This document shows positions 1-64,000 of a stretch of 64,000 nucleotides of DNA, piece after piece. The stretch lies in IMG/VR virus record IMGVR_UViG_3300000228_000007. One strand, 5' to 3'. Numbering within the stretch: the stretch's first letter is position 1; every line of letters starts with the position of its first letter. A program made the position numbers and the translations under genes. The stretch comes from a virus (lineage: Duplodnaviria; Heunggongvirae; Uroviricota; Caudoviricetes). The notes under the pieces were generated by a model that did no database searches, was not told where the DNA came from, and saw only the letters and a program-made list of their open reading frames with translations.

Positions 1-993
1 CCAATAACTACGAGTGCAGTAGCAGATCAAAAAATGATAGCTCCTCCTTACTATGGTGATTCAAATATAAAATATAACTATAATAAGACTGATGTAAAAA
101 ATCTATTAAATAAAACATCATGATTATATGAAATTAAGTGTAACGGGGATGCTTTATTAAATAAAATATGATTTAAAGAATTAGTAGGTAAAAAAGTTTC
201 AAATATAACATTTGAACTAAATGGATTAGATGTTAATGCTGATATAAAGAATTGTAATTTAAGTGGTTATAAATCATCTGAGCCGTCAAATACTGATATG
301 ATTACTGAAGAAGATGCTAAAAAAATAGCAAAAAGCTTTGTTAAAAATAAGTTATCAATGTTACAACTTTCATTAGGTGAACCTATAATTATAAATAAAT
401 CAAATTACAACTCTCCAATGTATAAAATCATGGGAAAACGATATTCAAATATGACTATGGAAAACGTTGTTGATGAACCAGAAATTATATCTGATGAAAA
501 CTCTGATATTGAGATTTGAAATGAATATTCTAACGTAGAATTCGTTTTTCCAATATTGATAAATAAAAATAAAGTATATGACCAATATGGTAATATTGTA
601 GGTCTTACATTATCTGTATCATGAAAGAAAGAAGTTACAAATTTTGATACTTCTATGGTATCAGTAAAACTATTAAGTAGAAAAGCTAAAAAATTAACTG
701 AAACTCAATTATATTCATTAATTGATAACTGATGAAATTCTCCATATTACAATTATATCTATAATGAAAATGGAAATGATAATACTTTATATAAAAAAAA
801 TATAAATTTAAATTCTGTAGAAAAAGTATACGTTATGTTTACTTATGACTATAAAGGAAAATCTATTACATATATTAGTAATTGAATACAGTTAAATAGT
901 GATGAAAAACTCCCTTACAATAATTCAAAAACTTATTCTCAAGTAATTTCAGACTATGTAATTTGAAATACTCAAAACACTGTTAGATACTAA
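1..993 (+). CDS. hypothetical protein, 5'-truncated by window edge (TGA=Gly reading)
   Basis: Frame 1 is open from nt 1 to TAA at 991-993 when TGA is read as sense, with several in-frame TGA. No recognisable motif. Confidence 0.45.
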
Positions 994-1260
994 TAAACTA
1001 ATTCAAAAAAATTATGGAGATTTAGAAGAATTGAGATTTAATGTAAAAAAATGTGTGATGGAAATCTTGATTTGTATTTTATTATTTTAATAATTACTTG
1101 TAATTTTGTTTAATTGATAAACATAATAGTAAGGAAAAACTATATTAGTTTAATTATAAAAAATAGCAATTATTAAAGATTTTGTTTTTTTAATTGATTT
1201 TTTAATATTAAAGATTAATATATATAGTAATTTCATTACTTATTAATTAAAATTATAGAT

Positions 1261-1794
1261 ATGAACTCATTAAACGAAGTAAAATTTATTTGAAACATTA
1301 TAAAAGAAAAAAAAAGTAAAACTGAAATATCTTTAGAAGAATTTAGACCTGCAATAATTCCAGAAAAAGATAATTGAAATTTAGTTTTAATTAATAAATG
1401 ATTTAATGATGCTGTTGAATTATCATATTATATTTCAACAAGAACTCGAGATTGAATTATTTTAGAATTAAAAAAAATAGCAGAAAATCTAATTATTCCT
1501 CCAAATTGAAAAACTAAAATAGTAATATCAAATTGATGATATCATTCAATTATATATAAATATAAAAATTCAATTTCAAGAATATGGTATTTTTGATGAT
1601 TTAATCGGTATGATTGAAATAACTTCTTAGCAATATGAGAAGATCAAGGTAATTATAAATCATCTTTGAAAAAAGAAACTTTTCAGAAATCGAATGATTT
1701 ATTATCTGTAAAAAAACAAATAATTAATAATATTCATTTTAATGATTATTTTGAAGATTTTATAAAATATCCGTGATATAATATAAATTACTAA
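1261..1794 (+). CDS. hypothetical protein (~177 aa)
   Basis: ATG at 1261, open to TAA 1792-1794 with in-frame TGA codons. No recognised domain. Confidence 0.45.
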
Positions 1795-2010
1795 TTGTAA
1801 GTTCTTTTTTAATATAAATTATTATTTGTTTAGACTGAATATACTGAAAAAATTGCTGAAATTGTTTTAGAAAACGCTTAATAAAAATTAAACCTGAAAT
1901 AATAAATACGCTTTGTAAAACAATAAAATTGTTATTAACAAGCGTTTTTTAATCTTTAATTATTAATTTTATATATGATAATAAAAAAAACTATAAAATT
2001 CATAATAATT

Positions 2011-3330
2011 ATGATACTATTAATTTTTTCTTTTTCTACTTTTGCTACTTGAAGTATTGAAAATAATACTTGAAGTATTGAAAATAATACTTGAAGTATT
2101 TTTGATATAAATACTCAATTAACATCAACTTGAAAAAGTGATATGAATATTAAGGAATGACTTGAAGAACTAAATAAAAAAAAGAACGAGTTAATAAATG
2201 ATTTAGCCTGAAAAGATGATATTTTTAAAAAAATAGAAAATCTTGAAAATGAAAAAAAGAAAGCAGAATTAAGTATTGATATGTTGGAAAAAATGAACTC
2301 GGAATATCAGTTACAATTAGAAAAAATTAAATTAGAACTAAAAAACATATATAATGATAAAAAAACATTATTAAATAAAATTAGCGAATATAAAGACGCT
2401 ATTTCATTAAATAATCAAGAATTAACAAGGTTAAAAGGGGAAAAAATAAATAATGCTATGATTCTTGAAAATCTTTCAAAAATGAAACTTTCTTTAATTG
2501 ATAAAGAAAATGAAATATTTTTTTGAAAACTAAAAAATATATGAATTATTTTTTGAATTTTGATTTTTATTTTTATAGTTACTGAAATAATATATAATAC
2601 TACACAAAAAGAACTGGATTATTTAAATAATTATTCAAAAAAAATAGCAAGATTAAATATTATAAATGTAATAACGATATTACTATTAATAATTTTATTT
2701 ATATTTTCAGCCTTATACTTGAAACCAGAATTAGCAGTATGATTTTTATTTTTTTGATCAGCATTAATTTTGATATTCAAAGATATAATACTTTCATTCT
2801 TTGCATCAATAATTATATTATTAAATTATGATATAGGGGACGAAATTTGAATAGAGGAACTATGAATTAATATAAAATGAAATTTAGTTAAATTAACACC
2901 TTTGTATATGGTAATGAAAGAATTATGATCTTGAAATTTATGATTTTCTTGAAGAATAATAAAAATACCAAACAAAGCTGTATTTGAAAAATTATTAATC
3001 AAAGAAACTTCAAACTATTCAAAATATTTAAGAGATTCTATCAAAATAATACTTTCTACTAGTAGTTCTTTTGAAAAAACAGAAAACAGAGTAAATTTGA
3101 AAAAACAGATGGATAAGATTAAAGAAATTGAAATATTACTAGAAGAAAGGTTAATAAAAATTCCTTTACAAGAGTTGGGAATCTTTAGTGACTTTAAGGA
3201 TTTGAAATATAAAAAACATTTTTATACAGATAATTCTGGATGTTCCTATGTTGATATTTCTTGGATTTCAAATAAAGAAGAAAGTAATATAATAAAAGAA
3301 AAAATTTTAAATATTTTATTTAATGAATAA
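2011..3330 (+). CDS. MscS-family mechanosensitive channel with N-terminal signal/coiled-coil extension
   Basis: Continuous frame-1 ORF joining track ORFs 2281-2526, 2560-2742 and 3097-3330 through TGA codons. The C-terminal region ...NYDIGDEIGIEELGINIKGNLVKLTPLYMVMKELGSGNLGFSGRIIKIPNKAVFEK... matches the MscS signature (GDxI...G..G.V..I....T.....dG..v.IPN). Hydrophobic TM helices precede it. Confidence 0.65.
2047..2105 (+). repeat. 21-bp imperfect tandem repeat (acttgaagtattgaaaataat x ~2.7) inside the MscS-like gene, encoding TGSIENN repeats
   Basis: Direct visual repeat acttgaagtattgaaaataat acttgaagtattgaaaataat acttgaagtattt. Confidence 0.7.
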
Positions 3331-3400
3331 ATTTATTTGAAATAAATCACTTATGTTATTATTAATATTATTATAATTTAATTTTTAATATAAACTTATT

Positions 3401-5316: not shown

Positions 5317-5958
5317 ATGAAAAAAGACTTTATAGTTTTTGAATGAATTGATTGAAGCTGAAAAGATACACAAATGATGTTGTTTATTGAAAAGCTTAAA
5401 AAATTTAATAAGTATGAACAAATATTAATCACAAGAGATCCATCAAATACTACTAAATCATGAAATCAAATAGCTCAGTCACTGTTAAATGGTTGATTTA
5501 AATCACCAAATGAAACACTTGAATTATATGTTAGTGATAGAATTGAGCGTTCGTCAATATATGAAAATATAATAAAATATGCTACTATAGTAGCATCAAG
5601 ATATGATTTATCAACATATGCATATCAATGAATACAATGATTCTCTTATGATGAAGTATTTGATTTTCATCAAAAAAAAGCAATAGACTTAGAATGATTT
5701 TTATTTGAACCAAATATCACTTTTCTTTTTGATATATCTCCCGAATTAGTTATGGAAAGAATATCTTTAAGATGAGAAAAAAAAGAAGCTTTTGAAACAT
5801 TAGAGCAGTTAAGTAAGGCAAGAGATAAATATTTAGATGCTATAAAATATTTAAGTGAAAAAACTTGAAGAAAGACTATAATAATAGATGCTTCAAAATC
5901 AATAGAAGAAGTTTCTAATAGTGTATGGGATGAATTTTTAAAGATAAAGTTAAAATAA
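5317..5958 (+). CDS. tmk: thymidylate kinase
   Basis: N-terminus MKKDFIVFEGIDGSGKDTQ is the classic Tmk P-loop. All three P-loop glycines are TGA codons (5344-46, 5353-55, 5359-61). LID/DRx-like region follows. A hairpin follows the stop. Confidence 0.85.
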
Positions 5959-9867: not shown

Positions 9868-12270
9868 ATGCCAAGTCAAAAAGTAAAAACATTCTTTGAG
9901 GAAAATAATATAGTAAAATGAGTATGAAAAGAGAATCAATATTCATTATCAGTTATTTGTAATAATCCTAACCTTTGATGAAAAGGTGTCTTTTATATTG
10001 AAGATGTTGGTTGAATATGACAAAATAAAATGCATAAATATCTTATCAATCAAGATGTAAAAATGACAGCCAAAATCTTTTTTAAAACAAATAAGGTTGA
10101 TTTTTCAAAATTTGACTGATATATGTGAATTGACATTGAAACATGAGAACCTTTTGCTGTAAATTTTATAAAACAATTACATACATTAATTGGTTGAGCT
10201 ACTGGTTCAGGAAAATCAGTTACTTTATATTTCATATTATATCAATTATTTTCAAATCCATATACTGAACTATATATTCTTGATAAAAATGATTTTTCTT
10301 TTCTTGCTTGAACTAAAAAAGTTATTTATCGTGGTTCAGCATTAGAAGTAAACGGAAAAGCATTTTTTTGATTTATACGTTATTTTTGGCTTGAACAAGA
10401 TAGAAGAAATAAGATTTTTAGAAGATACTGAGCTCGTGATTGGGCTGAATATTCAGCTAATGTAATGTGACAAGTTGAATGAGCACCAATTTTAAATTAT
10501 ATATATATCATAATGGACGAGTATCAAACATTGAGAAAAATGGTTTCTGATACTATTGGAGAAGATAAATTTGATAACGAAATGAAAAAATTACTGGATA
10601 CCGTTCGTGCGGCATGAATGTGTTTTTTCTTTGGTTCTCAAGATTATCAAAAGAAACAAATTTGAGATATGAGAGATTCTATTAGAAATAGTTTTTTTGG
10701 TAAAATGTGATATTGTGATGTATTAAATGGAAAAGAATTAAACAATATTAAGTTAAATATAGAATGAACATATTTATTTTATCATTCTTTAACAAAAAAA
10801 TTTTTAAAGATACCTTTTGTTGAAGATACAACTAATACATTAGTTGCTATGTCAAACGATCCTGCATTTAGAATTAAGGATAATGTAAATTACCTTACGA
10901 TACATGAAATGCTAAATGACCTCCTTGATGAAGCTGATTCTGATATATTTTATGATATTGAAGGGCTTGTCTCATATTTACAATTAAAACCAATGTATAT
11001 TGAAAAATTAAAAAAAACATCTGATTACCTTTCTTTTATGGTATTAATATACATATTATGACGTTGAATTCAATGATGAACTATGAATAGAACTTTTAAT
11101 ATATTTTCACAAATTAACTTTGAAAAAGAAATAGATCAACAACTTTTCGTAGCAATTGATTTTTTCAAAAAAGAAGATAAATTCTTAAAACTATTAACTG
11201 AAACTTTTGAAGCATCATGAGACGAAGAAGAGTTTATTGAAAAATTATCAGATGTATTAAATAATTATTTGAAGCATATTCTTTGAGATACTAGAATTTC
11301 TTTTACAAAATGAGATAATACACTACTTGTAAAGAAAGAATTAACACCAGAACAATCTTTATTGAAAGAAAAAGCTATATTGGAAGTTTCCTACTCTTGA
11401 GAGATAAAACCACAATCAGTAAACTCTATGTATTTTATTGATAAAAACGATAATTTTAGAAAATCATCATCTGCTGATAATTATGAGGATAAATTAAAAA
11501 ACCTTATAGTTCAAAGAATGCAAAGCCGTGAAATTAACCAATATTCGGAAAAAGTGATTCTTGATATTGGTTTTGAAGTTGAACTTTCGGAAAAGAAAGA
11601 TGGTAATTTATCTTGAAAATGAAGACTTGACTTAGATAATTTAATGAAAGCTACTATTGATAGTATAAGTAAGACTATAATAAAAGATGATAACTTAGTA
11701 TATGCTATTAAAGCAAAAATAACATACAAACCAAAATCTGATTCTATATTAACTAAAAATAATAAAGTCATAATAAAAGTATATCCATACGATAATGAAG
11801 TATTAAGTATATTTGAAAATTCTTATTCTTGAGAAAACTTTGTAAAAAGAGACGATTTTAATTTTATATTGCCTTTAGATAGTAATATTACCATACCATC
11901 ATTTAATTCAATGTATAATATTTTAGGGGGTAAAAAAGTAGCTTCTCCGAATGCTACTACTTATAAAAGAATGGTTAAAGATGCTTTTATTAAAGATAAT
12001 GGATTTTCTGAGCCTACAAAATCAAGTATGGCATTACTATGAACTATAGGAGTTTATAATGATAAAGAAAGAGATCTTGATAATATGTTAAAAGCAACAA
12101 TAGATTCATTTACATGAACCGTATATATTGATGATAAACAAATTTTAGAATTTTTTATAAAAAAGAAACATATTAATGGTAATGCTGGAACATTAGAACT
12201 AAGTTTCTTTGAAATAAACAATGATACTAAACATTTAGTTAAAAGAAAAGAATCTAATAATGAAAATTAA
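9868..12270 (+). CDS. FtsK/SpoIIIE-HerA-type P-loop ATPase fused to two tandem RusA-like Holliday-junction resolvase domains (~800 aa)
   Basis: Walker A LIGGATGSGKSVTLYFILYQL and Walker B YIIMDEYQTL resemble FtsK-like DNA translocases. The C-terminal third carries two copies of the RusA signature: GRLDLDNLMKATIDSI...DDNLV and RDLDNMLKATIDSF...DDKQI (DxDNxxKxxxD...DD). The frame is continuous through track ORFs 10849-11061, 11428-11616 and 11644-11832. Confidence 0.65.
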
Positions 12271-14726: not shown

Positions 14727-17700
14727 ATGTTGAAAAAGATAATATTATCATTCATGACAATCCTTTTGGTAACACAAGGTATTTTTGGTATTGCTAAAGC
14801 AGATGAAATAGATGAATTAAAACAAGAATGGAGAAATATATGAAATCAAATATCAACTATACAAGTTAAGTTAGATAATGATTGATCTTTGTATATGCTT
14901 CCTACATATGCTAATATAAAAAATTTATGAGGATTATTACCAGGTTGATGTATTGATGCGGATCTTTTATCAAGTTCTATTGAAGATAAAACAAATGGAG
15001 CTTATCGTATTAACTGTACCAATGAAATAACATTTAAAAATCTACTAAAATTATTACAAGTAACAACCACTCATTCAATTTATGGTAAGGAATTATCTGA
15101 TTTATATATTCCTAAATACTTTATTCTTGAACAAGAAATAAACGTTAAATCAACAAAGGTTTCTATAGATTCTCTATGAAGAATTTGGTATAATAATCCT
15201 GAAAAACAATCTATCATAAAAATTTTTGATCCAGATTTTTGAAATGATTCAGATTGAAATGAATGAACTTATGAAAAAACATTATATAAATATGATTCTT
15301 TTACTCCAAATACTTGAATTGAAGTATTTTGATTAGATTGAGATAGATTATCACCAGAAACGTTAAGAATGTGAACTTATTCAATAGAGCATTATATGAC
15401 ATCTGATGAAAGAGATAAAGCTTATGATTCAACACCATTATTTTGAAGTTCTACAAATACCTTAAAATACACATTAAATTATTTTAATGATTTAATGGAA
15501 GAAAAAGCATTTCGTGAAATTTGTAATAAAAATACATTAACAAATTTATATAAAAATGATGATTTAGCAAATACTATATCTATTAGTTTTCGTAATTTTT
15601 TAGGAGAATTAGATGATAGAGTTTCTATGATTAATAGTTGAGATTGCGGTGGAATAACATGATTAAGAACAACAAATTGAAGTGCAAATTCAGCATATAT
15701 AAAAGATAATTGATCTATAAAAATAAATGTCAGTGGAACAACGCCAGTATTGGATATACTAAGATCAACAACTAATGATTGGAATTCTACAAATAAAGCC
15801 GGATGAAAAGTATGGTTGGCTAATATTGATAAAAATCAATCAGATGGTGATTGGATTAATATTAATGTTCCTAATGTTTGAGTTATATGAAATAAAAGAA
15901 ATTATAGTTCTACTGATAATTCTTTTATTAAAGAATGGTTAAGTGGTAAAACGGTAAAATTATATTATTTAGTTAAAATGACTTCCTATTTTCCATGAAA
16001 ACCTGATTTATATAATAAATATACGTCTTGATTAGATCCCATGAATAATGATTGGTATGATTATAATAATCACTCATGAAATTTACCAAAAAACTATTTA
16101 TATGCATGACACGTTTCAAAAGTTTCAGGAGGTCGTGATTGAGTTTGAGATGCTAACTATTTCGTAATGTTATGATCTAAAAGTCTAGGTAATCCAGAAG
16201 CATCAACAATATATGCATTATCAGCACCTTGATATTCTCAAAAATGAAGTAATATTAGAGATCGATTAACAGATGATAATACTGCTGCTAAAACGCGTGC
16301 TCAGAATTTACATTTAAATATATCTCAATGATATATGGAAACTGAAAGATCTAATAAATCAAATAAATGACCTGACATTACGTTATTGAGTCCAGTTCGT
16401 AATATACCAGATCCAAAAGGTAATACTGTTCATCATTTATTTAGAAATTATGATGCAGATATGGAACTTAATCCAACGTCTAATACTAATAATTATGAAC
16501 AAAATTTAAATTATGTATTAGCTTATGTTTCAAATACTTCAACATTAGCATTTGCAAGAAATTCATTCTCTGCAGACTGATTATTAAATTGAGTGTCTAT
16601 TGCTTCAAAATTTTGGTATAATACATCACAGGATAATGAATTAATTCAAAGAAGTTGAAGCGATGTCTGTTCACCAGATATTAATAATGGAACTTTCTGG
16701 GGTTGATTATATTCATTATATGATTCTTTTAGTGCAAGTTCATGTCCTGATATTATTCAAAAACAAACAATAAGTTCAAATTATAATTGATCAAATTTTT
16801 ATCAACAATTTGAAGCTTGATTAACAAAAGAGTTATGATGATCTCAAACATCAGAGGGTTTATTGCTACAAACAATATTAAATGCTTGAGATGTAGAAGT
16901 TTATAATCAAATTTACACTAATACAAACTATGTTGTTTGATTACCCAACAAGGACCCTATAAAATGTAAAATAGATTTATATAAAATCCCTGTAAAAAGC
17001 AACTTTTGATATGATAATATTTTTACAAGTAAAAAAGATTTATCTACTGATTTGGTTTATTCTACTCCATCAAATATATTTACCAGTAGCCCTGCATCAT
17101 ATGTAGACACTACTATATTAAATTCATTAATGTGAAAAACTTATAATAAACCTGCTGAAACTGCATATAATAATTCTCAATACAAAGGTTCTTCTTGAAA
17201 TGAGCAGGAGTGGCTTTATGGTGAAAAATGAATTGTCACATATAAATGTATGAAAAACAATCAAGATGATGATAATATTGCAGTAACTGTTGTTACATCA
17301 GATAAAAAATACATAAAAACTTGAACAAAGTTTATAGAACAAGCAAATACAAATAAATTATCAACACCACTATTTACATTTAATACAGGGTCTTACTTAG
17401 GTTATAAAAGTAGTGTAATAGAAAGTGATTCAACTGTTTCATCATGAATTCCTTTTGATAATACAAATTGTTCAGCGTGATTTAATAATAATTATATAAT
17501 AAATAACACAATATGATGATTTAATTATACAAAATTAAATGATGCTACATCATGAATTCCCGCTTGAAACACAAGAATTCTTTGAACTTGTCAGGTTGGT
17601 AGATTAACAAAAAATCAATGATTATTTAGATGAGGTATTGAGGTGCAAACAGCAGCGCAAACAACTTTTTGAGCTGTAAAAACTTATGGTAAAATTGACG

Positions 17701-20700
17701 TAATTATTTATGATAAAAATCGTCCATGACAAATTATTGATCAAAAAAGTTATTATATAACTACAACAAAAAAAGATTCAATGGTTATAAGTGCTGATGG
17801 AAAAAATGCTAAATGGACTGACACTACAGCTCGTGGTTCAATAAACCATACTGATGGTATTACTTTCACTATGCAAAATAATTCAACATCTACTATAAAT
17901 TCTACCGACACAACAACATGACTTAATTTAATCATATTTCCTATACAAGCAGCAAAAAAAGCTACGTCAGGAACAATTAATAATTGAGCTTGAATTATAG
18001 GTGCATTAGCATCTTGTACGGCTAATAATGTTGATTGTTGAAATTTAAATGGTTATACAAATACAACTAACTGAATAAAAACTTATTCACAAGATGGTAC
18101 TGCTTATTTAGATTGAGTTTTAGGTGCATGAAATACCGCTTCTCCAAAACTTTCTATTGCTATAAAATCACGAAATTGAAATATTATAAATAATACAATA
18201 GTTTATAAAACAACAAGACATGCTACATCTATTGCCTATGCAATATGAATATCTTGAACACCAGCAACCGAAAAATTTTTAAGAATAATTTTACCTGCTA
18301 ATTATTCAAAATTATGACCTGGTGAAAAAATTGAAGTAACATTAAAAGCTAATACAAATGCTTTTACTGCTATAAATTGGATGAGACCAGAGCAATCACA
18401 AGAAGTAAACCAAGCAACTGCATTTACAGTAATTTGATTAGATGGTTCTACTTTTTTACCTTGAATTAGTTATGCTAATTATAAACCAATAATTATGAAA
18501 ACCATAGCAAATGCTGCTAATCCAGCCGTTTGTAATATGGAATTTCCAACTGTTTGTAGTTGAACAAAATGTATTTGGTCGAGTTGAGATGGTAGAAAAC
18601 TTTACTTATCTGAAGAAGGTATTAGAGCCATTACTGGTGTTCCAACTGCAAAGTGTTGAGATAATATAGGTTGAATAGTTCGTGAATGTATTATTAAAAC
18701 AACACCTAATATATATGCTTGAAATGTAGCCGAAACTACGCCTTATACAGTGCCTTCAAGTGTTTCTTCACCTCAAAAATGAGCATTATATAACTTTTTG
18801 GTTTGATTTGAGTATAAAATGAGGAATTATATAGCGCCAACCTGATATCAATTTGATGCAACAAGATTGTCACCAAAAGCATTCGAAGCAATATATCCAT
18901 TAAAATGAACACCTAGAGTTGTATTTAATGATATAAGTTCTATTGAAAAGAGAAAAGTCATAAAATTTACACAAAACAGAAATAAAGCAATATGACTATC
19001 TCAAGCATCTACATCATCATCTTTAAGTCACACTAATTTTGGTTGAACACCAACATTAACTGCTAAGTCAGTAGCATGATTAACTTCTTGAACTCAAACT
19101 GCCGTAAATAGTATATTTAAGTATCCGAACTTCTGTAACGGTTCAACTGCAAATTGTGATACGACTGCTACTCCATTATGAAATATAAATAATAGTATTT
19201 ATTATTGAGTAAAATGAGTATCTAATGGTAATTCACAAGCAACGGCTTTTATTGAATTTTCATGAGATTCATCTAATTTAATAAACGGATTAGATTTTAG
19301 AAATACTACATGTAAAGTTTGAACAGTAGATTTCGTTACGGCAGATCCACCACCATCACATGGTTATTGTAATGTTTTAAGTCAAGAAGTTCCTAACGGA
19401 TCTAATAATATAAACGTATGTGACCCTAATGCTTCATGAATAGCTACAAACAACTCAATATCACTTGAAGAAGATTTTATACCTTGAAATTATGTTAAGT
19501 ATATACTTCAATGCTGAAATGATGGTTGACAAGATTTTGAATGAGATTTAGAATTTAATATCTCAAATTTTTCAAACTATGCATTAAACGCTTCGTATTT
19601 AATAAGTAATGGTTGAAGTCCATCTATATCAACAACATCAAATTCAGTTAAATTAGAAGGTGTTACTATCCCTTGAAATTCAACATCAAATGTCGAATTA
19701 ACTGTAAACCTAAAAACAAGAACTCCAAGTTGTCCTGATAATTTGCCTGATATGACAACAAATGCAAAACTAACATCTGCAACTTTTCAAAGTGATTTAC
19801 CTTCAACAACAAACTCATTATCATTTAGGGAATGTAAAGTTCCAACATTAAACCTTAACTGAGTTAGAGTTACTGACTGAAATGTTAATAATGATATAAT
19901 TCAAGACAGTTATACTAGTGCTTATCCATTTGAGTTTTCTCAATGTGGAAATCAATTAAGATACGAACTAGAGTGAAACTATGAATGTTATGAACCAAAC
20001 TCTGCTAAAATAAGTGTAACATATGATGTATGAAATAAAACTGATGGAATATGATTATGAAGAGATCCTGTATCAAGTATTTTTGCTTGAAATTTATATA
20101 CAGTTGCTCCAAATATAATATGAACCACATGAGTTAATTGGAATATGTGATGATATAATCATGTGTGAAGCCCATCAGGTTCTTTTTGACCGAGTGTATC
20201 AATTAATCCAACAGCATGATGAGATTTTAGAATGACAAATTCTTCATTTACGGTTTCAAATGTTGGTTCTCCTAATACGAAGATTAAATCACCTACTGGA
20301 GCATTTACTAAAATAAATTCAACACAATGGTTATCTTCACCTATGAATATGCAAATTGGTTTAGACCCAGTAGTTTCAGGTCAAAAAATTTATGATAATT
20401 GAATATATCAAGATACAGACTTTAATACTGTAAAATTACATAAAGAAGAAATTGATGGAACATCAAAAAAAGTTATAAAAACTTGAACTGGAAATTATGA
20501 ACCTATTATATTTGAGGCAAAAGTTGATAACCCTATAAAAAACCAATCAACATATTGAATGAGCCAATTAATGTTTGATATGTCATTAAATCCAAATACA
20601 GCTTCTTACTTTGATAAGGTTGATACAAATATTCCTACTTCTTGAAGCAATATATATGTAAAATATTGAGAACCATTATGGCAAAATCAAATTTTAGCGC

Positions 20701-23700
20701 CGGGGAATTCAATAAGTTATAAATGATGATTTAATGTAATACCTAATTTAAAAACACCTAATTTAACTCCTGCAAACACTTTATATCAAGCAAACTGAAC
20801 TCCTATGTTAAAATTTGCCAATGATCAAGGTGTGGCGTGTAATTTTAATCAATGATTTACGAATTGGACAAGTGAAATAATGAAAAATCCTATAACTATA
20901 TCAAGTATAACATTTGCCGATGAAGCACCTAATTCTATAACACCTGCTACAGATGAAATATCAGGAACTCCATTTGAACAACACTTACCTTGAGATACTA
21001 TATTATTAAACATATTGTTTAATAACAATAACTCTACAAGAAACTTTAATGATACTTATGTAAAATTTACATTTGATAATACATGAAGTTGAAAAATTGA
21101 TGTTCCTGCTATGAACTTTGATTTCACAAAAATATTTACAGTTCAATGAGTAGAATCTTGAGGGTGGATTACATTAAATGATAATTCTGCAAAATGTAAA
21201 GTTACGGCTACAACATTAATGTGTCAATTGATAGATAAAATAAATTATCAATCTACAAAAACATTAAAAATACCTTTACTTATAAATATAGAAAGTAATT
21301 TCTATCAACAATTAAAAACACAACCAAATACTAAAAATTGGAAATATTGGTATCCTACTGTGATTTCAAAAATTGAATATGGAACTCCTGATTTGAACTT
21401 AATAAATAATGTTGTTTATTATACTTCTTGAGAAAATGAATTACCTTCTGGTTGAATAAGAGATGATATTGAAACAGATGACTTCAATAATCCAATAAAC
21501 AAAACTCTTCCTGCTGAACCATTAGATTGAAAATATTCTTTCTATGTAGGTATGCCATATGCATCTATTGTAACAAGCTATTATAACGCTTCCGTTTGAA
21601 ATATATCACCTTGAGATATCTTGGTTTATAAAACTAAGATATCTAATATAGGTAAAGCATCTTTAAAAAATCCATATATTTTACAAAATCTATTTCCATT
21701 AGGATTAAAGGATAATTGGGTCGATGTTGAAGTTAATAAAGTAAGATTTACACCAAGATTAAATAAAACAAATATTTGACCTGAGGTAACAATAGACTTT
21801 AAAGCATTGAATACTGATGCTAACGCTACTAATGATGTTGATGTAAAAAATATTTGAATAATAGCGTTTAAAGAATGATTAGATGTCGATAAGTTTGATG
21901 TTTCTGTTTGAAATAGAATTGATACAAAGGCTGATAAAGAATTTGTTTTAATAGACGGTTCAAATACATTAACTGACGGTTGAGATATTGAACTTACTAC
22001 TGAAATGAAAATAGTAAAATTAAAAAATGGGAAAAGACCACAAATTGATTGTACTTCTCCTACCTCATGTTTGAGAGCAAATAAAAATCCTAAATCAGAA
22101 GAAGTGAGATGAGCAATAGATTTACCATTTGTATGAACATCAGTAGATGAAAATGATACTAAAACATATAGTGTTCATTTTCCTATATTAAAATCACAAT
22201 TATTTGCTAAATCATGAAATGATTATAGATATACTGACTGAGCAAATGCTGAAATTAAAGGTATGTTAAATAATGATAATACTACGGTAACATATAGACT
22301 TGATAACTTTATATCTCAAGAGTATACAAATCACAATACTGAAAAAATAGGTAAAGCCAGAAATGTTAAATCATACGTAAGACTTCCTATGTGAGTAAAA
22401 TATGTTCCAGGTAGTGTTAAAAGAATTGATAATATAGTTGACGGTGTTAATGATCCCTTATATAATACGATAACTCCTTTAGTAACAGATCCAATAATAA
22501 CAGAATACTCTGATTATGGACTTATTAATTGGACTTCTACAAATACATTTGATAATACGTTTTTAACAAACACTGATTGGAACAAAGTTCCTGGTTCAAA
22601 TGATAATCAATTTCAATATATGAAATGAACGCCATTTAAGTTTAATTACTTTAATAGAAATTATAACTATTATAGAATTACTGATGATGGTGCATTAACA
22701 TTGGGATATGTTGTAGATCCAATAAATCCTACAAATTTGAATGAATCACAATTCTATACAGATAAAAGAAATTGAACAATGCATACTACGTGACCAGTTA
22801 GTATTACTTTTGATAGAATTAAACAATGATTAATAATACCAAACGGATTACAATATACTAACGAAAAATGAGAATATAAATTGTCAGATGGTATAAATCC
22901 TATTACTGTATGAAAAAATTCTACTATTACTTTAAATGGTAGTAATACGGTATCGTTTACACAAGGTCTTGAAGGTGTAACTTACATTTGAAGTAATGTT
23001 GATATATTTAAATCAAATATTGATTATAATACCATTGCTACACAATGGAAAAATTATGCTATAATATCACCTGCTTTCATAAAACTTGATTTAACTAAAA
23101 AATCAGAACATGGTGTTTATGAAAAAGTAGTTAGAGATTGAGCTTGAAAAGTTACGGAAATATGGTATCAATGGTTTGGTTATGTTGAATGAACTAATAA
23201 AGAGGTTAAGTTTGGTATAGTATTATATAACTGAACTAAATATAATAATATTAAATTTATTTATGGTGATATAGATAATACCTTAACTATACCTATAATA
23301 TCTTGATTATCTTCATGAAGATGAAATGTTTCTTGAACATATTCTTTTAGTTCTTATAATGGATTACAATTAAGAAATCTTTCAAATAAGGATGATATTG
23401 AATTTGATGCATCACCAGTAAATGTGTATCAAGAATTAGTATTTGATGTATGATATCCTGCAGATTGAGCAGATGCTGTGAGTGATCCAGTAGTAATGTA
23501 TCAAGAAAAGAATTCATTAGGGGCTTATGTAAAATGACCTGGTAAAGACCAAACTTCATACATATTCCAATTCAATGTAAGAATTACTACAACAGATTTA
23601 GTATGTTGAAGCGAATACTCAACATCAGATGGTTGAAATACTCTTTCTTGGGGTAAAATATCTTCTTCAAGAAGTGATAAGGATGATATAGACCAATTCT

Positions 23701-27849: not shown

Positions 27850-29769
27850 TTAGTAATAATTTCAAACATTATGTATATATTTTTCAGGTATTTCATTAAG
27901 AAATCTTGAAGGTTGTTGGTATTGATAGTTTCAAAAAATCATTCTTTCACCAACATAACTTAAAAATAAGTTTTCTTTTGCTCTTGTCATAGCAACATAC
28001 ATTAATCTACGTTCTTCCTCTAATCAAGTTAATGTTTCAATTGAATTTTTACTTGGTAAAATACCATCCTCAACAGCAACTACTGCTACGTTTTCAAATT
28101 CAAGTCATTTTGATTTATGAATAGTCATAAGACTTACAAATTCAGCATTATCATCTTTATGTTCATTAGCATCTTGCATAAGAGCTATTTTTTCAACGAA
28201 TTCTATAATTCCTTCATAACCAGGAAATCATTCATAAGACATTCACATCGATACAAGTTCTCCTAAGTTTTGTTTTTTATCATCAAATTCTTCTCAATTA
28301 TAGTTTTTCTCAAGATATTCAAGATATCCTATTTCTTTTATAACCATAGAAATTAAATCACCTACAGACACTGAATCAGATGCTTCTTTCAAATTTTTCA
28401 TAATATTTATAAATTCTTCAAATCAAATTTTTGCTTTACCTTTTAATGAATTTGATACTATTGATGGTTCTTCAATAACTTTGTGAAAATTTCCAGAGTA
28501 TTGTTGTTTTACTATATCTAATATATCAGCTACTCCTTTTGCTCATAATCAACGAGTAGGAGTATTAATAACTCTTTTGAATGAGTTTGAATCTTTTTTA
28601 TTTACTATCAAGTTAATGTATCACATAATATCTTTAATTTCCATTCTTTCTACGAATACCAATCAACCAAAAACCCTATAAGGTATTTTACTATTAATAA
28701 GTGATTGCTCTATTATTCTTGAAATATAATTATTTCTATATAAAATAGCCCATTTTTTAGGCATTCAAGTTTTTAGAATTTCTTTGGCTATATTATCGGC
28801 TTCTTGCAATGAATTATTTAGATTGAATACTTTTATTGGAGTTCAAATATCTCACATTGAAAACAATTTTTTATCAAGTCTAATAGTATTGTTTTTAATA
28901 ACTTCATTAGCTGAATTTACAATAGTTTGAGTTGAACGATAGTTTTGTTCAAGATTTATTACAACAGCTTCTGGATAATCTTTGGTAAAGTTCAATATAT
29001 TTTTCATATCAGCATTTCTAAATGAGTAGATAGACTGATAATCATCTCATATAACACATAAATTTCTCGTATGTGCTGATAATAGTTTCATAATATTATA
29101 TTGTATCATATTAGTATCTTGATACTCATCAACGAAAAAATACTTAAATTGTTTATTAAACCTACTCATTACTTCTGGGATTTTTAGTATTTCAAGAAAG
29201 TTGATTAACAAATCATTAAAATCCATAGCATTGTCATTAAAGATTCTTTTTTGGTATTCTTGATAAAACTCAAATATAATTCTATCTAAGTCCTTTTTTA
29301 TATTTTTTTCTATTAATTCTAAAGAAAATCAAAAGGTTTTAAATTTATCAATTTTATCCTTAAAAAGAGATACATCTAAATCTAACTCTGCGAGTTCCAT
29401 TTCTTTGAATATAGTTTTCATAAGTTTTGTAACATCTCAATCGTCATAAATTGAAAAGGCTTTATCATATCATAATAAATTTCAATAAGTACGAAGGTAT
29501 CTTGCCGCTAAACTATGGAAAGTTCATAAAATAGGCATTCAGGAAATTCATTCAGTTTGTATTCTTGTTGCAATTCTATCTTTCATTCATTTTGCTGCTT
29601 TATTAGTAAATGTTACAGCAAAAATTTCTTCGGGACGGGCTTCTCCATCCAAAATTAATTTTATAATTCTTTCAATTATAGTATGTGTTTTGCCAGACCC
29701 AGCACCAGCATTTATAAGTAATGGTCATTTTATATGATCAACTGCTTGTTGTTGTTGAACGTTTAACAT
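27850..29769 (-). CDS. UvrD/PcrA/Rep-family superfamily-1 DNA helicase
   Basis: Motif [15 protein letters not shown] with the G before PLL as TGA. Motif [18 protein letters not shown] with G as TGA. Further FTNKAA, TFHS and the C-terminal helicase motif V/VI region VAMTRAK. Confidence 0.85.
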
Positions 29770-48703: not shown

Positions 48704-49456
48704 ATGAAAACTAAATTTGGAGATAGAATGAAACGATATGAAAGTGAGCTTAATTATACTGTTGATACAACTAAATATACAGTTTTAAGACTCGACTGAC
48801 ATTGATTTTCAAAATTTACTAAAAAATTTGAAAAACCATTTGATATGAGAATTTATAATATCATGAACAAAGTAGTAGAAGATTTATTTTATGAATTTAA
48901 TCCGATAACATGATTTACTCAATCTGATGAAATAACGCTAATATTCAAACCTTCAGAAAATTTTATATATAATGGTAGAATAAATAAGTTGCTTTCTTTA
49001 ACATCGGCTTTTGCAACTGCTCGTTTCAATTTTTATTTATCTCAAGAATTAATAGGTTCTAATGATGAAATTCTTATTAATAAAATTTGATTAGCATTTT
49101 TTGATTGTAGAATTATGTCTATGCCTAATGAAACAGAAGCATTTAATATGTTGTTATGGAGAATGAAAGATTGTGCTACAAATAGTAGAAATACTTATTC
49201 ACAAGAATATATATCTTATAAAGAACTACAAGGTGTTGCAAGTTATGATGCTATAAAAATATGCAATGAAAAAACTTGAAACGATTGGAATAATTTAATA
49301 GAAGGTCTTAAATATTGAACATTATTTAAAAAAGCAGACTTTATAAATAATGAAGGCTTTTTAAGAACAATCGTTAAGCAGTTTCATATTGATATGTCTT
49401 TTAGTGAAGAAATGGTAAATTTTATGCTTTTAGACAAGATACCCTTAAATAATTAA
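48704..49456 (+). CDS. Thg1-like protein (tRNA-His guanylyltransferase family; 3'-5' nucleotidyltransferase)
   Basis: YTVLRLDGHGFSKFTKKFEKPFDMRIYNIMNKVVEDLFYEFNPITGFTQSDEITLIF matches the Thg1 N-terminal signature (RxDG..FhkF....KPnD ... SDE), with G of RLDG and HG as TGA. Start and stop verified. Confidence 0.7.
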
Positions 49457-54988: not shown

Positions 54989-54995
54989 CATAATT

Positions 54996-56523
54996 ATCTT
55001 TTTAAGTATTTTGAACCGAAGTTTTCAATTTCTCTTACAATATTATTATCCTTATATGAATCTAAAGCATCAATGTATTGGAATATTTTGTCTGACCAAC
55101 CTTGAACAAGGTAAACATTATTCATGTTTGAAACCTTTGTACCATATCATCCAACATCAAAAATGAAACATTTTATATTAGGATTAACTTGGTTCATGTA
55201 ATTTTTAAGTTCTTTTTCAACATTAGCAACATCACAAGAAGAGTTATACATTTGACTATCAGAAAAGAACATTATTGTGTCTACGAATAGATTTCTTTTT
55301 GTAAGTTCTTGAATTGCCAAGTATCCGTTAGTTGAATAACCAACTTCACCATCTCGATAAGAATCAAATATATCAAAAGCACCAGTAGGATTTTTTAATT
55401 TAACTGAATCACCGAAAACACCTGCAACACTGTATGGAGAAACTGTTGCCGCAATACCAGTATATAACAGTCCTATATCTATCATTTTTACTGTAGATTT
55501 TGGGTGTATATTATCGGTCATAGAACCTGAAACATCTGCAAATACAGCAATTCTATTGCTTAATTTAGTGTTTTTTACAGAATATAAAACAGCCGTAGAC
55601 AATGCTTTTTTAATTACATTAGAATATAAGTTATTTGGTAAATTCTTATATGCAGAATAAAAACGGAAAGGTAATTGTTTTGAATTTTCAACAGCATTTT
55701 CATTAGAAATGTAATTTGCTATCATAGAAACAAGGTTATCAGCGTCATCTCTATTTACTGAAGCAAATTTATCTGCAACTTCAAGAATATTTCTTAGATT
55801 TCTAATTGTGGCCATATAACCAAGTTTTTTGTTTAAAACAAGATCATACCATACATAAAACACATCAGTAAGGTATGTTTCTGTATTTTTTGGAATAGAT
55901 GAAATAATCCTTTCCCAAGTATAAGGTTTTTCTACTGTGCCATCTAATACTTTTTTTGCAAGAACTGAATTTGGATGTATGATACGAACAACATCTTTTA
56001 GATTAATAGCATAGTTTCTATCATATTTTCCAATTTGATACTCATCAAAATTATTAAATGCCTTAGCAAGACCTTTAATTAATGAGTGCGATAAAGCACC
56101 ACTTTTTGCTCTTTTGTTTACTTTACCTTCTGGTAATAGGTATCCTAATATTTCAACAATATCATCAATTCTTTCAACAGAATCAGCAATTAAATCGCTA
56201 AAATAAGCATTTTCACCATTAAAGTATTGTGAAAGTTCACCAATAATCACATGGCTCATTGTACGCATATTATAAACTTGTCTAACGTAAAATGCTAATC
56301 CAAGTACGAAAGAAGGATTTTTATAAGCTAATTGGCTTATTAAATTTTTAATTTTAACAAGTCTATCATCTTCTTTTTCATAAAAAGAGTCAGTTAAAAA
56401 GTTGGAAACAACCGCTCCAAGAAGTTCAAGTTCCAAAGATAAAGAATAAGCCCTTTCTCCTTCATGATTTACTGTAACGTTATTTACAGTATTCATTACA
56501 TTTTTTGATCCGAATTTTGGCAT
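54996..56523 (-). CDS. rsr: Ro60/Rsr ortholog (TROVE domain + vWA/MIDAS)
   Basis: Track ORF 55147-56523 extends through TGA to TAA at 54996-54998 (~509 aa). vWA MIDAS ADVSGSM is present. Overall length and architecture match Ro60. Confidence 0.75.
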
Positions 56524-57093: not shown

Positions 57094-58728
57094 TTAAAAG
57101 TTGTTTTTTATAAATTCATCAGGGTTTTCATTTAATACAAAATCTATTGTAATTACATTATTCAAGAACTCTTCATCAAGTAAATTATCTCATAAAGATT
57201 TTAATAGTTCATTAAACTTTAATTTTATATCCATACCATAATGGTTTCTATTAATTCTTTCTGCTATTTCTTGATGAGTAATGGTTATATATTTAGCAAC
57301 CTTTGATATATCAAGTTCTTGAACTAATTTTTCTTGATTTTTTATCATATCTCTTAATTTTTTCAAAAAATCTTTTCTTAATCTATTGTATTCTTGAACA
57401 TCACGTCCTGTCATATCAAATGCTTGTTCTTTTGTTAATTCTGGGTATCCTAAATCTTCAAAATTTGAAAAATCTTTAATTTTATAAAAATCAATATCTC
57501 CCTTTTTTAATTCCATAGAACAATTTCTTTTTAAAGAATCGTAAAAATTAGGAATTGAAATATATAAATCTTTAATTTTTTCAAAAAGTTCTTTTCTTGT
57601 TTTTATATCAAAAGAAAGTTCATTTTTAATATATGATGGTATTAATACCTCCAATAATATTTCCTTTTTATTATCATCTATATAATTATCAATATTTCCT
57701 TTCAAGTTTTCATTTCAAATGAGAAATTCATCAATATCTTTATATTTTCAAAGATTGAATACATAAACCATTTTTCATCTTGCATAAAACTTTTTAGCAA
57801 TTTCATACATGGCTCTTGTTCATGCTCAATCATTATCAAGTAATAATGTTACTTCATCAATTCTATTTATAAAAGAATTAATTTGGCTGTCAGATAAAGA
57901 AATTCACAATAATGCTAATGATTTTGTACCTCCATAATTATATAGCTGTATCGTATCAATATTTCATTCACAGATAAAAACATCTCTCGTTAAAAAATCT
58001 ACTTTATCAATATTTAATAGATTATGAGATTTTTCATAAATAAAGTTATTTGTTGAATGTATATATTTTGGTTCTTGATCTGAACGTATTCTTCCTCATG
58101 AAAATGCAACGGTTTTTCAAAACATTGTTTTTACAGGAAACATAATTCTATCAACGAATAAAAAAGAGCCTTTATCATTAAATAAACTAATGTCTTGTAT
58201 TTTTATAATTGAATATTTTTCATCTTTAAGTATACTACTTACATACATTTCAAGATCTCTTCACTTTGAAAATCATATATCAAATCTTTCAATAGTATCT
58301 TGAGAAAGACATCTTTGTTCTTTCAAGTATTTAACTTGAACTAAACTTTTTACTAATGCTGATTGACAAAATTTAATTACTAAATCGTGAATTTCATAAA
58401 TCAATGCTTGTTTTTTAGCGGCTTCTTTATCAAATTCATTTTGACTTAAATCAATATTAAGTCAAAAAATGCTATTAAACTCATTTAATGTTTCAAAAAA
58501 ATTATAACCTTTATATTCTTTAACGAATCTGAATATATCACCTCCTTTTCAAGAAGAAAAGTCTTTCCAAATTCATTTTTCATCACTTGCTACAAGAGAG
58601 GGAGTTCTTTCTTTCTTGAATGGAGATAAATACTTCTGAGTACCACTTAAAGAACTATCACCTTTTAAGTAATAGCCTAATACTTTATTTATGCTTAATT
58701 GTTGCTTTATATCCTCTATATTAATCAT
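57094..58728 (-). CDS. dnaG: DNA primase DnaG with degenerate (Cys-less) N-terminal zinc-binding region
   Basis: RNA-polymerase domain motifs RIMFP, AFSGGRIRSDQEPKYIHS. Toprim VFICEGNIDTIQLYNYG and LLLDNDGAGTRA. The N-terminus LSPFKKERTPSL...WKDFSSGKGGDIF aligns with the CPFHxExTPSF...CFGCGxGG zinc finger but has lost all Cys/His. Track ORF 57190-57705 is the C-terminal part. Confidence 0.8.
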
Positions 58729-60081: not shown

Positions 60082-60094
60082 ATTTATATCTATA

Positions 60095-61835: not shown

Positions 61836-62546
61836 ATGACATTATATCTTTCAGATGGAAATTATGATAATTTTGAGAGTTTATCAAATATTAATATATG
61901 AAAAATTCATTTTATTACAGAAGATATTATATGAATATATAATATAAATGTTAATAGTGATATAAACTTGTATACTAATGAGTTTATGGCTGAAATTATT
62001 ACATTAAATATGACCGGAGAGTGAAAAATTATATTTAATTGAAATATTAAAAAAATGGAGTTTTGAATATCTAACTCACAATATTATAGTAATATATCAA
62101 GATCTGAAGATAGATATGAAGAAGAAATAAAATTATGAATTCAATCTATAATGAATACATTATCTTATTTTTATGCAGATGAAGACTCGACAGTTGATAC
62201 ATTAAAAATAGATATAAAAAATGAGGTATATCCATTTATAAATGAAAGTTTTAAGCATTTAATAATAAATGCAAAAGAAACATATATAACAACCTATATT
62301 AATCAAAATGAGACGTTTGATATAACAATGGATAAGATCTCTGATATAAAATCTAACATAGTCCATATCAATCCATCAATTTCAATAACGAGTCCAGCGA
62401 TAGATATGTTTGAATTTTTACAATTTTTTAAAAATATAAAAGATAAAATAGTTGTTCTTAATTGGGATATAGTAATCAAACACTTTTTTATAATCGTTGA
62501 TATGATTCTTATAAGAAAAAAGACATTATTAATAACTATAAAATAG
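61836..62546 (+). CDS. hypothetical protein (~236 aa)
   Basis: Frame-3 ORF including track ORF 62151-62546, extended upstream through TGA codons to ATG 61836. Confidence 0.4.
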
Positions 62547-62668
62547 TTATAAAATTATTAATGATAAAACTATGAATAAAAATATTCAACGATTTAAATT
62601 AATAAAAAATTTGTAAAAACGTAATAAAAATATAATATATTATAGTTTTATTTTTTAATATATTACTT

Positions 62669-63433
62669 ATGGAAAATTCAAAAACATTACATAACAGCAT
62701 ATATGCTATTATGCCTTACTTTGAAGATGATTTTATCGTTTTTGAGGGTGGAAATAAAAGAAATTACATTATTAGATTTTGGCAAATTGGAGAATTTGCT
62801 AAATATAAAAATATTTTGGAAAATAATCCTTTTTTAAAAGGTTATTTGAAATTATTAAATTCTACAGCTAAAAGAGAATATTCATTTCCATTAAATGAAA
62901 ATGGAGAAGTTGATTTTACACAAATTGATAGTTTAGATTTAGATAAATATCAAGTTAATATTGGTAAAGAAAAAGACTCACATTTATATTTTGAATTTCG
63001 TGGAAATTGAGAACTTCCATTGGGATATGCTTTAAATATAGTAAAACAAATTGTTGATAAAGAATCTTTTGATGTAAAATTTGAAAAATATAATTGAGAA
63101 TTTGATGAAATTGAAGAGAAACTACTACCATTATTGACAAATTCAAATTTTTATCTTTCTGTAAGTATTGAAACAGAAGTTTCTATGGATTATGTTATTT
63201 ACATACCATTGATAACTACAACAGAAATACCTAAGGAACTTTTTTCAAACATAAAATACCATTATTATAATGAAGATGAATTCCGTGTTAAATTAACAGA
63301 TTCAGATATGGATTTAGATATTACCAAAGAGCATATGTTTCTTGAATTAACATCAAGATATGACGAAAATGGTAATTACAGAAATGTTGATAGTGTAGAT
63401 GATGTTTTGAAGTTAGTTTTTCAATTAATATAG
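62669..63433 (+). CDS. hypothetical protein (~254 aa)
   Basis: Track ORFs 62669-63010 and 63134-63433 are in the same frame and joined through TGA. Confidence 0.45.
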
Positions 63434-63954
63434 ATATTTATGAAAGAACAAGTGTGATGAAATAAGTGTCCTGATTGCTGATTTAACACTTATTTCAAAG
63501 ATTTGGGTGATAACGAAAATTATACTTTTTGATATTGGTGTTGAAATAGATTTATTTATCATTTTTGGTTGTAAAATAATATTTGACAATATCTTTAATT
63601 TGTGATATGCGTTTTTATTTATTTTCAATACTTTTTTATGAAAAAATTGTTCTAATTACATTGTTTTGTTATTAATACCAACTCCTATTACAGAATCTTT
63701 TTGATATTCACGAAACCGGAGGTAACGAGATATAAAAACTATAATAATAAAATATGATAGATTATGGCGTAATTCTTATTTTTGACAAATTGAACAAAAA
63801 GATTATCCTGCGTGTGTAAATAGATGGACTTATTTAACAAATATTGAAAGGTATAAACTTTTAAGATATATCAATAACAAAAAATAAAGAGTTTTTTATT
63901 TTACATATATAAGTTATATTATAACTTATATTTGTAAAATTTAATAATTAATTT

Positions 63955-64000
63955 TATGGAAATAACAATTACTGATTGACATTCTGAACCTACTGAAAAA
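63955..64000 (+). CDS. hypothetical protein, 3'-truncated by window edge
   Basis: ATG 63955 (MEITITDGHSEPTEK...) runs off the window. Confidence 0.25.

Follow-up and report, generated by a model that had tools for sequence, protein, structure and literature searches.

Is TGA a stop codon or a sense codon in the 64,000-nt stretch of the virus record IMGVR_UViG_3300000228_000007 (hereafter the window, i.e., the whole stretch of DNA analysed), and if it is a sense codon, which amino acid does it specify, and in what kind of replicon? An earlier note, made from the letters alone, proposed genetic code 25 with UGA as glycine and rejected code 4 with UGA as tryptophan. Based on codon counts, profile scoring, and comparison with standard-code orthologs and known structures, we conclude with little room for doubt that the window uses translation table 25 and not table 4, and thus stems from an organism with this code or from a replicon residing in such an organism. 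Table 25 itself is known (Campbell 2013 and Rinke 2013, as cited) and has been validated at scale by Codetta (PMC8629427).

TGA as a sense codon in the window

The window is very AT-rich, with a G+C content of 23%. Stop-to-stop open reading frames (ORFs) of at least 100 codons covered 15.2% of it under table 11 versus 86.1% with TGA read as sense, and the longest ORF grew from 462 to 3776 codons. When TAG or TAA was made a sense codon instead, no long ORFs appeared (maxima of 462 and 471 codons, respectively). Since TAA and TAG together would account for about 7.7% of random codons at the window's composition, an open frame of 3776 codons is impossible by chance.

Codon counts were based on a non-overlapping set of 60 ORFs comprising 17,958 codons. 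In-frame TGA was present in 56 of these 60 predicted genes and made up 691 codons (3.85%), next to 119 TGG (0.66%) and 426 GGN codons (2.4%). Read as glycine, UGA provides 62% of all Gly codons and is therefore the majority Gly codon of the window. The frames carrying TGA were free of TAA or TAG interruptions, and both of these codons were kept as stops, with TAA ending 57 genes and TAG three. With TGA as Gly, the deduced proteome contained 6.2% Gly and 0.66% Trp, both ordinary values, while translation with TGA as Trp would yield 4.5% Trp and 2.4% Gly. The coverage values and the 56 genes with TGA bear out the earlier view that standard-code ORFs fragment or miss nearly all genes of the window. 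The estimate that TGA constitutes about 5% of codons was too high for the window as a whole and applies to the gene for a giant secreted protein alone (5.4%).

Glycine at TGA positions

The assignment of UGA to glycine follows from Pfam scores, a scan of all 20 residues, and the columns of standard-code orthologs, since all three favoured Gly. For a paired Pfam scan, eight window proteins were translated both with TGA as Gly and with TGA as Trp. The Gly version scored above the Trp version in every family, namely Thymidylate_kin (PF02223; 111.1 versus 76.0 bits), UvrD-helicase (277.7 versus 255.9), UvrD_C (229.0 versus 204.9), Topoisom_bac (305.8 versus 268.0), MethyltransfD12 (PF02086; 141.3 versus 109.3), DNAG_N (76.1 versus 61.4), Toprim_2 (49.9 versus 25.0), AAA-ATPase_like (83.9 versus 65.4), and RusA (72.5 versus 69.0). 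A match to FtsK_SpoIIIE of 29.6 bits with Gly was lost with Trp.

The 20-residue scan used a 924-aa composite of the thymidylate kinase Tmk, a Dam-like methylase, the N-terminal domain of UvrD, and the Toprim region of DnaG, containing 42 TGA sites, and was scored by the summed bits of the four families UvrD-helicase, MethyltransfD12, Thymidylate_kin, and Toprim_2. Gly ranked first with 569.8 bits, followed by Ser (501.6), Ala (499.0), Thr (490.6), Asn (489.7), and Cys (488.1). Next came Gln (486.3), Arg (486.0), Glu (485.8), Lys (483.3), His (481.9), and Asp (479.0), and then Pro (474.7), Met (468.5), and Val (464.8). For Trp, 430.8 bits were obtained with Toprim_2 below the reporting limit, which amounts to about 456 bits when the 25.0 bits of the paired scan are added; Leu, Tyr, Ile, and Phe reached 422–430 bits over three families, with Toprim_2 under the reporting limit as well. 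Altogether, Gly exceeded the second-ranked Ser by 68 bits and Trp, among the worst residues, by about 114 bits.

For the ortholog columns, a profile scan of GTDB species genomes provided 80 UvrD/PcrA loci from named standard-code bacteria of many phyla. That all of them use the standard code is due to the tblastn ranking, which penalises TGA-interrupted genes. After translation with table 11, 75 full-length orthologs were aligned with the UvrD of the window. At its 25 TGA columns (1647 cells), Gly accounted for 49.9%, Ala for 13.2%, and Trp for 0.18%, while the 15 columns at which the window has GGN revealed 45.8% Gly. Eleven of the 25 TGA columns were at least 89% Gly, with invariant Gly at residues 241, 409, and 555, and the BLOSUM62 sums were +3740 for Gly, +368 for Ala, +248 for Ser, and −3917 for Trp. 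The same picture was obtained for DnaG: in 79 standard-code sequences, its TGA columns held 49.7% Gly and 0% Trp, including four invariant Gly, and its GGN columns 50.4% Gly.

At the level of single motifs, the raw sequence at 5317–5361 reads ATG AAA AAA GAC TTT ATA GTT TTT GAA TGA ATT GAT TGA AGC TGA AAA, that is, MKKDFIVFExIDxSxK, so that all three glycines of the Tmk P-loop FEGIDGSGK (FEXIDXSXK with TGA masked as X) are TGA (5344–46, 5353–55, and 5359–61). The corresponding columns are Gly in five PDB kinases. In UvrD, TGA codons lie in motif I (29725–27) and in motif III (VIXDDYQSIY, 29047–49). Among 23 aligned UvrD TGA columns, the Geobacillus PcrA (1pjr) has Gly at nine and the Deinococcus radiodurans UvrD (4c2u) at 13, and neither has Trp at any of them. 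The TGA at 31692–94 of the topoisomerase TopA is located in YEKGLLTYIRTD (LYEKXLLTYIRTD), beside the active-site Tyr; opposite the TGA codons of TopA, the residues of Escherichia coli Top1 are G, A, E, Q, or K, with W at no position. Further TGA codons were found in GYCTYY of the CHAP protein (XYCTYY, 34606–08), adjoining the catalytic Cys, in the S-adenosylmethionine (AdoMet) motif I DASCGSGAFL of an N6_Mtase-S fusion (41550–52), and twice in RLDGHGF of a Thg1-like protein (48797–99 and 48803–05), where PDB entries 4kgk and 3wbz have Gly or Ala at the RLDxHxF columns. In the TROVE protein, the only TGA stands opposite a Gly of PDB 9l5y.

TGG behaves differently from TGA. The TGG codons of TopA in ELVWRR and KVWNY correspond to Trp in E. 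coli Top1 and the one in IIGWTY to Tyr, while UvrD and DnaG each have one TGG column, occupied by aromatic or hydrophobic residues; few TGG columns were sampled overall. Thus, UGA is Gly in every functional gene class of the window, UAA and UAG are the only stops, and UGG alone encodes Trp.

With regard to the earlier note, all in-frame TGA codons it had placed in conserved motifs were recovered there from the raw sequence by a motif search with TGA masked as X. Its proposal that TGA sits at invariant Gly positions does not extend to every TGA, as Gly fills about half of the aligned cells, just as for GGN. The protein it had named HsdM does carry the motif DASCXSGAFL with TGA, but turned out to be a 767-aa fusion of N6_Mtase and Methylase_S. 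Its view of TGG as a separate Trp codon agrees with the use of TGG in IIGWTYSP and with the Trp or aromatic columns at TGG, and the tabulation of residues at TGA columns that it had suggested, run in three independent ways, placed TGA at Gly and not Trp. A predominance of Trp at TGA columns, which would have spoken for the opposite assignment, was seen neither in UvrD nor in DnaG.

Tryptophan in database homologs

Some database entries seem to contradict this assignment. A UvrD from a 75,712-bp contig of the Joint Genome Institute (JGI) collection (P0001) is identical to the UvrD of the window except for Trp at 25 of 25 TGA positions, so its source pipeline must have translated it with table 4. 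The same applies to other entries: P0001, P0003, P0121–P0127, and many Gracilibacteria-like UvrD homologs in public collections are table 4 translations. Such mistranslated homologs reach 3–6% Trp at less than 1–2% Gly, and the database copy of DnaG (P0121) has 2.9% Trp. In 16 Trp-inflated homologs, Trp also stood opposite the GGN-encoded glycines of the window (23.6% of cells), which identifies the Trp of these entries as an annotation artefact. According to the gTranslate preprint, a coding-density heuristic in common tools gives UGA-recoded genomes table 4; density-based assignment of this kind explains the Trp-translated entries.

Decoding of UGA and its share among Gly codons

In DnaG, UvrD, and TopA, TGA makes up 50–65% of Gly codons, as elsewhere in the window. 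Since the replication genes are as TGA-dense as the others, decoding of UGA as Gly must be present constitutively. In organisms with table 25, this is achieved by a tRNA-Gly with the anticodon UCA together with loss of release factor 2 (RF2) (PMC8629427, PMC10746230). By analogy with this literature, UGA would be decoded here by a tRNA-Gly(UCA) bearing the Gly identity elements G1:C72, C2:G71, G3:C70, and U73, loss of RF2 would remove competition for UGA, and strong A+T mutation pressure would convert GGN to TGA. Across the window and its relatives described below, the UGA share of Gly codons tends upward as G+C drops, from 50% at 31.5% G+C (L001) and 62% at 23% (window) to 71% at 19.2% (L092), 85% at 19.0% (L089), and 67% at 16.6% (L091), which fits A+T pressure on GGN.

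Within the window, this share is uneven. Only one of 27 Gly codons of the TROVE gene is TGA (binomial p = 2e-10 versus the window average of 62%), and 10 of 37 in the N6_Mtase-S fusion (p = 2e-5 versus the same average), while the genes at 44885–45556 and 62669–63433 show 18–19%. As the total Gly content of these low-TGA genes is normal, they were probably imported recently from donors with the standard code, and their codon usage has not yet been converted.

Gene content

The genes assigned in the window are listed in Table 1. Apart from these, replication, repair, and nucleotide functions are represented by a deoxynucleoside monophosphate (dNMP)-kinase-like protein, DnaQ-like exonucleases, and a metallophosphoesterase. 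Genes for DNA modification and nucleases comprise two Dam-like methylases, the N6_Mtase-S fusion, and an AAA-ATPase/PD-(D/E)XK protein, and the membrane and envelope genes encode an SPFH protein, an M50B peptidase, an MscS-like channel, the CHAP hydrolase, and the giant secreted protein. Two genes, for the Thg1-like and TROVE/Ro60 proteins, have RNA-related functions.

Table 1. Features of the window and the basis of their assignment
Feature	Position	Strand	Size and TGA codons	Basis
TGA-sense coding sequence, TAA/TAG sole terminators	1..64000	.		ORF coverage, codon counts
Thymidylate kinase (Tmk)	5317..5958	+	10 TGA, 1 GGN	PF02223
FtsK/SpoIIIE-like ATPase + two RusA domains	9868..12270	+	800 aa, 32 TGA	Pfam
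Giant secreted protein	14727..26015	+	3762 aa, 205 TGA	Signal peptide, BNR-like repeats (weak PSII_BNR match)
UvrD/PcrA-like superfamily 1 (SF1) helicase	27850..29769	-	639 aa, 25 TGA	Pfam, PDB, ortholog panel
Type IA DNA topoisomerase (TopA)	30810..32882	+	690 aa, 31 TGA	Pfam, E. coli Top1 alignment
CHAP-domain peptidoglycan hydrolase	34084..34923	+		PF05257, 59.8 bits
D12-class (Dam-like) N6-adenine DNA methyltransferase	34933..35970	+	15 TGA	PF02086
N6_Mtase + Methylase_S (type I specificity) fusion	40158..42461	-	767 aa	Pfam
Thg1-like protein	48704..49456	+		PF04446, 116.3 bits
TROVE/Ro60-like protein	54994..56523	-		PF05731
DnaG-type primase	57094..58728	-	544 aa, 15 TGA	Pfam, 79-sequence panel

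The combination of an FtsK/SpoIIIE-like P-loop ATPase (residues ~66–258) with tandem RusA Holliday-junction-resolvase domains (~498–645 and ~678–790) in one ORF is an unusual architecture. The D12-class methyltransferase gave no PDB match by sequence. UvrD is without the C-terminal Tudor domain (PF21196) found in Gracilibacteria PcrA homologs of about 750 aa, and DnaG is without the DnaB-binding domain (PF10410) listed for cellular homologs, both according to precomputed Pfam assignments; the absence of both domains could hint at a mobile-element origin.

Between TROVE and DnaG, upstream of the TROVE gene, the minus strand at 56560–56960 revealed a predicted folding energy of −96 kcal/mol (z = −7.2, reached by 0 of 100 shuffles). 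The predicted fold combines a stem (~70 nt), a multibranch domain with four hairpins (~175 nt), and a further hairpin (~100 nt). Bacterial Ro60 genes usually adjoin Y RNA genes, and the structured region is a candidate for a Y-like RNA. A comparison of the region around the TROVE gene with Rfam gave chance-level matches only, and none for the structured region itself; across the whole window, no match reached the Rfam gathering score. The other copies of the region upstream of TROVE are 99.9–100% identical and hence uninformative for covariation.

Two further regions stood out. The lowest coding density was found at 49830–53050 (~3.2 kb), which contains three short ORFs (101–117 aa) with TGA as sense; no tRNA, Rfam match, or tandem repeat was found there. 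At 2046–2100, near the N-terminus of a membrane/coiled-coil protein, a 21-nt sequence is perfectly repeated in tandem (2.6 copies); each unit contains an in-frame TGA and specifies the heptad T-x-S-I-E-N-N.

Copies, extent, and relatives of the replicon

Several contigs overlap the window. Contig TB_FS06_10DRAFT_1000015 (JGI 3300000233; 77,482 bp) is 99.94% identical to window positions 47093–64000 and adds 4,728 nt past the right end; by its coordinates, it reaches about 39 kb past this end, and it terminates at the 3' end of the gene for the giant 3762-aa protein. Contig TB_FS06_10DRAFT_1001740 (10,709 bp) is 100% identical over window positions 1–2079 and adds 8,630 nt leftward, with its left end inside a second giant gene, whose secreted product has at least 1916 aa (L088, positions 1–5751). 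Further copies, located through the DnaG entry P0121, are in the Logan assemblies SRR1559230, SRR8200784, SRR1560064, and SRR8194889; the two 8.7-kb contigs compared match the window with 99.94% (SRR8200784) and 100% (SRR1559230) identity. SRR1559230 and the label FS06-10 belong to a study of sulfidic-stream biofilm from the Fissure Spring of the Frasassi cave (PMC4288042). The replicon is thus from a Frasassi sulfidic cave-stream biofilm, Fissure Spring FS06-10. Its size exceeds about 110 kb, no ends were found, and the assemblies break at giant genes. An arrangement in which the 77.5-kb and 75.7-kb contigs represent one circularly permuted replicon with a length of about 77 kb was rejected, as the same sample contains the separate 10.7-kb contig continuing the left end.

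Contigs of the replicon and its relatives (L001, L002, and L089) repeatedly end in or at genes for giant secreted proteins. These breaks suggest strain-level hypervariability or repeats.

Relatives with the same recoding were identified (L001, L002, L089, L091, and L092), in which ORF coverage is 0.07–0.33 under table 11 versus 0.84–0.98 with TGA as sense. The Walker A motif of MutS among these relatives reads GPNMG-TGA-KS. The UvrD of the window has three close relatives (57–96% identity), followed by Gracilibacteria PcrA at about 45%, and its best named homologs are from Candidatus Gracilibacteria with 44–47% identity. A DnaG relative with the same recoding (P0125) adjoins SecA, MutS, and Tmk, which is a cellular context. 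In a tblastn search of DnaG against 50,697 phage records, only matches of 25–30% identity were obtained. Altogether, sequence similarity loosely affiliates the replicon with the Gracilibacteria. A placement in class JAEDAM01 (Patescibacteriota) would be based on the same UvrD identities of 44–47% to Gracilibacteria, the window containing no marker genes.

Alternative explanations

At the level of sequence, every feature of table 25 that could be looked at here was found, and the defining feature of table 4 was not. As in SR1/Absconditabacteria and Gracilibacteria, UGA is heavily used for Gly, translation stops at UAA and UAG, and Trp is specified by UGG. The G+C content of 23% lies within the published range of 21–53%, the best named homologs are from Gracilibacteria, and the habitat is sulfidic and anoxic. 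What differs is that the lineage of the window is without a close relative among GTDB species representatives and that UGA is the majority Gly codon, with a share of up to 85% in one relative.

Some observations weigh against a reading of the window as Gly-recoded DNA of a Gracilibacteria-like lineage. ARAGORN detected no tRNA gene in the window, in its flanks, which total 13.3 kb (L083 and L088), in L084 and L085, or in relatives amounting to about 87 kb (L001, L002, and L089–L092). Pfam scans that included nearly all window proteins with 140 aa or more revealed no release-factor domain, a search that covers 64–77 kb of a genome larger than that. For DnaG, relatives above 38% identity number only seven, with Firmicutes following at about 30%, and searches of TopA against GTDB species representatives and of UvrD against IMG/VR gave no close relative. 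One Thg1-like TGA column is Trp in 4kgk, a Thg1-like protein (TLP) of Bacillus thuringiensis. Finally, the TGA at UvrD residue 61 (29587–29589, minus strand), in motif Ia TFTNKAAK-x-M, falls on a conserved Glu, which is present in 75 of 75 standard-code orthologs and 114 of 116 database homologs, including the closest relatives. Because Glu scores 84 bits under Gly overall, we read this site as a putative lineage-specific change from Glu to Gly at a conserved position.

Regarding the code itself, table 4 as used by Mycoplasmatales, Entomoplasmatales, and several insect endosymbionts shares with the window a sense UGA, a low-G+C reduced genome, and an identical coding-density signature, so that coding density alone cannot tell the two tables apart. 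Apart from that, only the JGI UvrD entry with Trp at all 25 TGA positions and the single Trp column in 4kgk speak for it. Against it stand about 456 bits for Trp versus 569.8 for Gly in the 20-residue scan, TGA columns with about 50% Gly and no more than 0.2% Trp, TGG kept as a separate rare Trp codon, and the Trp-rich, Gly-poor proteome it implies, and the Trp-inflated homologs lose their weight by having Trp opposite GGN glycines too; we consider table 4 so improbable that it hardly enters the balance. Selenocysteine sites, pseudogene lesions, or sequencing and assembly errors as the source of in-frame TGA are ruled out by the counts and by the identity between assemblies: 691 sites are spread across 56 of 60 genes, Cys scores 488.1 versus 569.8 bits for Gly, the same frames have no TAA or TAG breaks, and the independent assemblies L083, L084, L085, and L088 are 99.94–100% identical. 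An extension of the code as in Absconditabacteria, with CGA and CGG as Trp on top of UGA as Gly (Shulgina and Eddy 2021), would fit the rarity of these codons (12 CGA and three CGG in the window), as in the reassigned clades, and the predominance of AGA among Arg codons (PMC8629427). However, of these 15 codons, two CGA are alignable. Both match Arg (R11 of the Thg1-like protein in 4kgk and R390 of TROVE in 9l5y), none is at Trp, and the nearest named homologs are Gracilibacteria and not Absconditabacteria, which makes this extension unlikely. 

As to the replicon, a recoded phage of a standard-code host, with its own UGA suppressor tRNA and with recoding that times late genes as in gut phages recoded at TAG or TGA, would have documented precedents (PMC10746230). 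Tmk, RusA, primase, helicase, topoisomerase, methylases, CHAP lysin, and the Thg1-like protein resemble modules of large phages, and ribosomal, tRNA, and metabolic genes are absent from 77 kb. But recoding in the window is not confined to late genes: DnaG, TopA, and UvrD are equally TGA-dense, so that a standard-code host would be unable to express them on entry. Neither a suppressor tRNA nor any other tRNA gene was found in 77 kb, the recoded DnaG relative is encoded next to SecA and MutS by a cellular contig, and no terminase, portal, or capsid match was obtained, all of which leaves this explanation very unlikely. A far stronger contender, to which we give somewhat less than an even chance, is an extrachromosomal element such as a large phage or plasmid whose Gracilibacteria-like host uses code 25. 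Phages and prophages with code 25 are known from Gracilibacteria and Absconditabacteria (Liu et al. 2023, mBio, PMC10746230). Like the window, they show dense in-frame TGA, almost no genes called under code 11, and a far higher coding density under code 25, and the gene set of the window is compatible with a large-phage replication module. In addition, no tRNA, rRNA, ribosomal-protein, aminoacyl-tRNA-synthetase, or metabolic gene is present in 77.3 kb; UvrD and DnaG lack domains of their cellular homologs; RusA, several methyltransferases, the CHAP lysin, TROVE, and the Thg1-like gene are present; and the replicon is unrepresented in GTDB species genomes. In contrast to the known code-25 phages, however, the window and its flanks gave no structural or packaging hallmark: terminase, portal, capsid, and tail genes were not found with Pfam and PHROGs among unannotated, giant, and 13-kb flank proteins, nor was an integrase in 77 kb. 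The replicon was also not found in IMG/VR searches (by exact 40-mer and with UvrD); the 40-mer, which is present in L083, had no match among metagenome contigs either. It encodes membrane proteins of a typical cellular kind (M50B peptidase, MscS-like channel, and SPFH protein), its giant secreted proteins resemble CPR (candidate phyla radiation) surface proteins, the related primase is found in the chromosomal context of SecA, MutS, and Tmk, and the replicon exceeds 110 kb with no ends found. Weighing both sides, we lean only slightly towards the chromosome of a divergent, unbinned code-25 bacterium over a large phage or plasmid.

Taking the reading of UGA as Gly together with these considerations, we tentatively propose a picture that as a whole we hold to be possible, if rather more doubtful than probable. 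The window would derive from a deeply divergent, unbinned code-25 lineage of the Frasassi sulfidic cave biofilm, as part of a replicon exceeding 110 kb, perhaps a plasmid or giant phage whose host resembles Gracilibacteria. In this replicon, UGA would have come to outnumber GGN, the recently imported TROVE and N6 methylase genes would be in the midst of conversion, and the Ro60 gene may adjoin an as yet undescribed structured RNA similar to Y RNA.

Significance

Nothing about the code itself is new, as table 25 has been known since 2013 and code-25 phages and prophages since 2023. What is new is a divergent, poorly sampled code-25 member from a sulfidic cave. In practice, it is of value for correct annotation: nearly every gene of the window is missed or truncated when table 11 is applied by default, and entries translated with table 4 corrupt P-loops and other Gly motifs, identity values, profile searches, and structure predictions. 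Though of modest interest otherwise, the window is a clear illustration of how A+T pressure lets TGA take over from GGN, and its low-TGA genes, probably acquired horizontally, provide internal controls that could serve to date gene imports.

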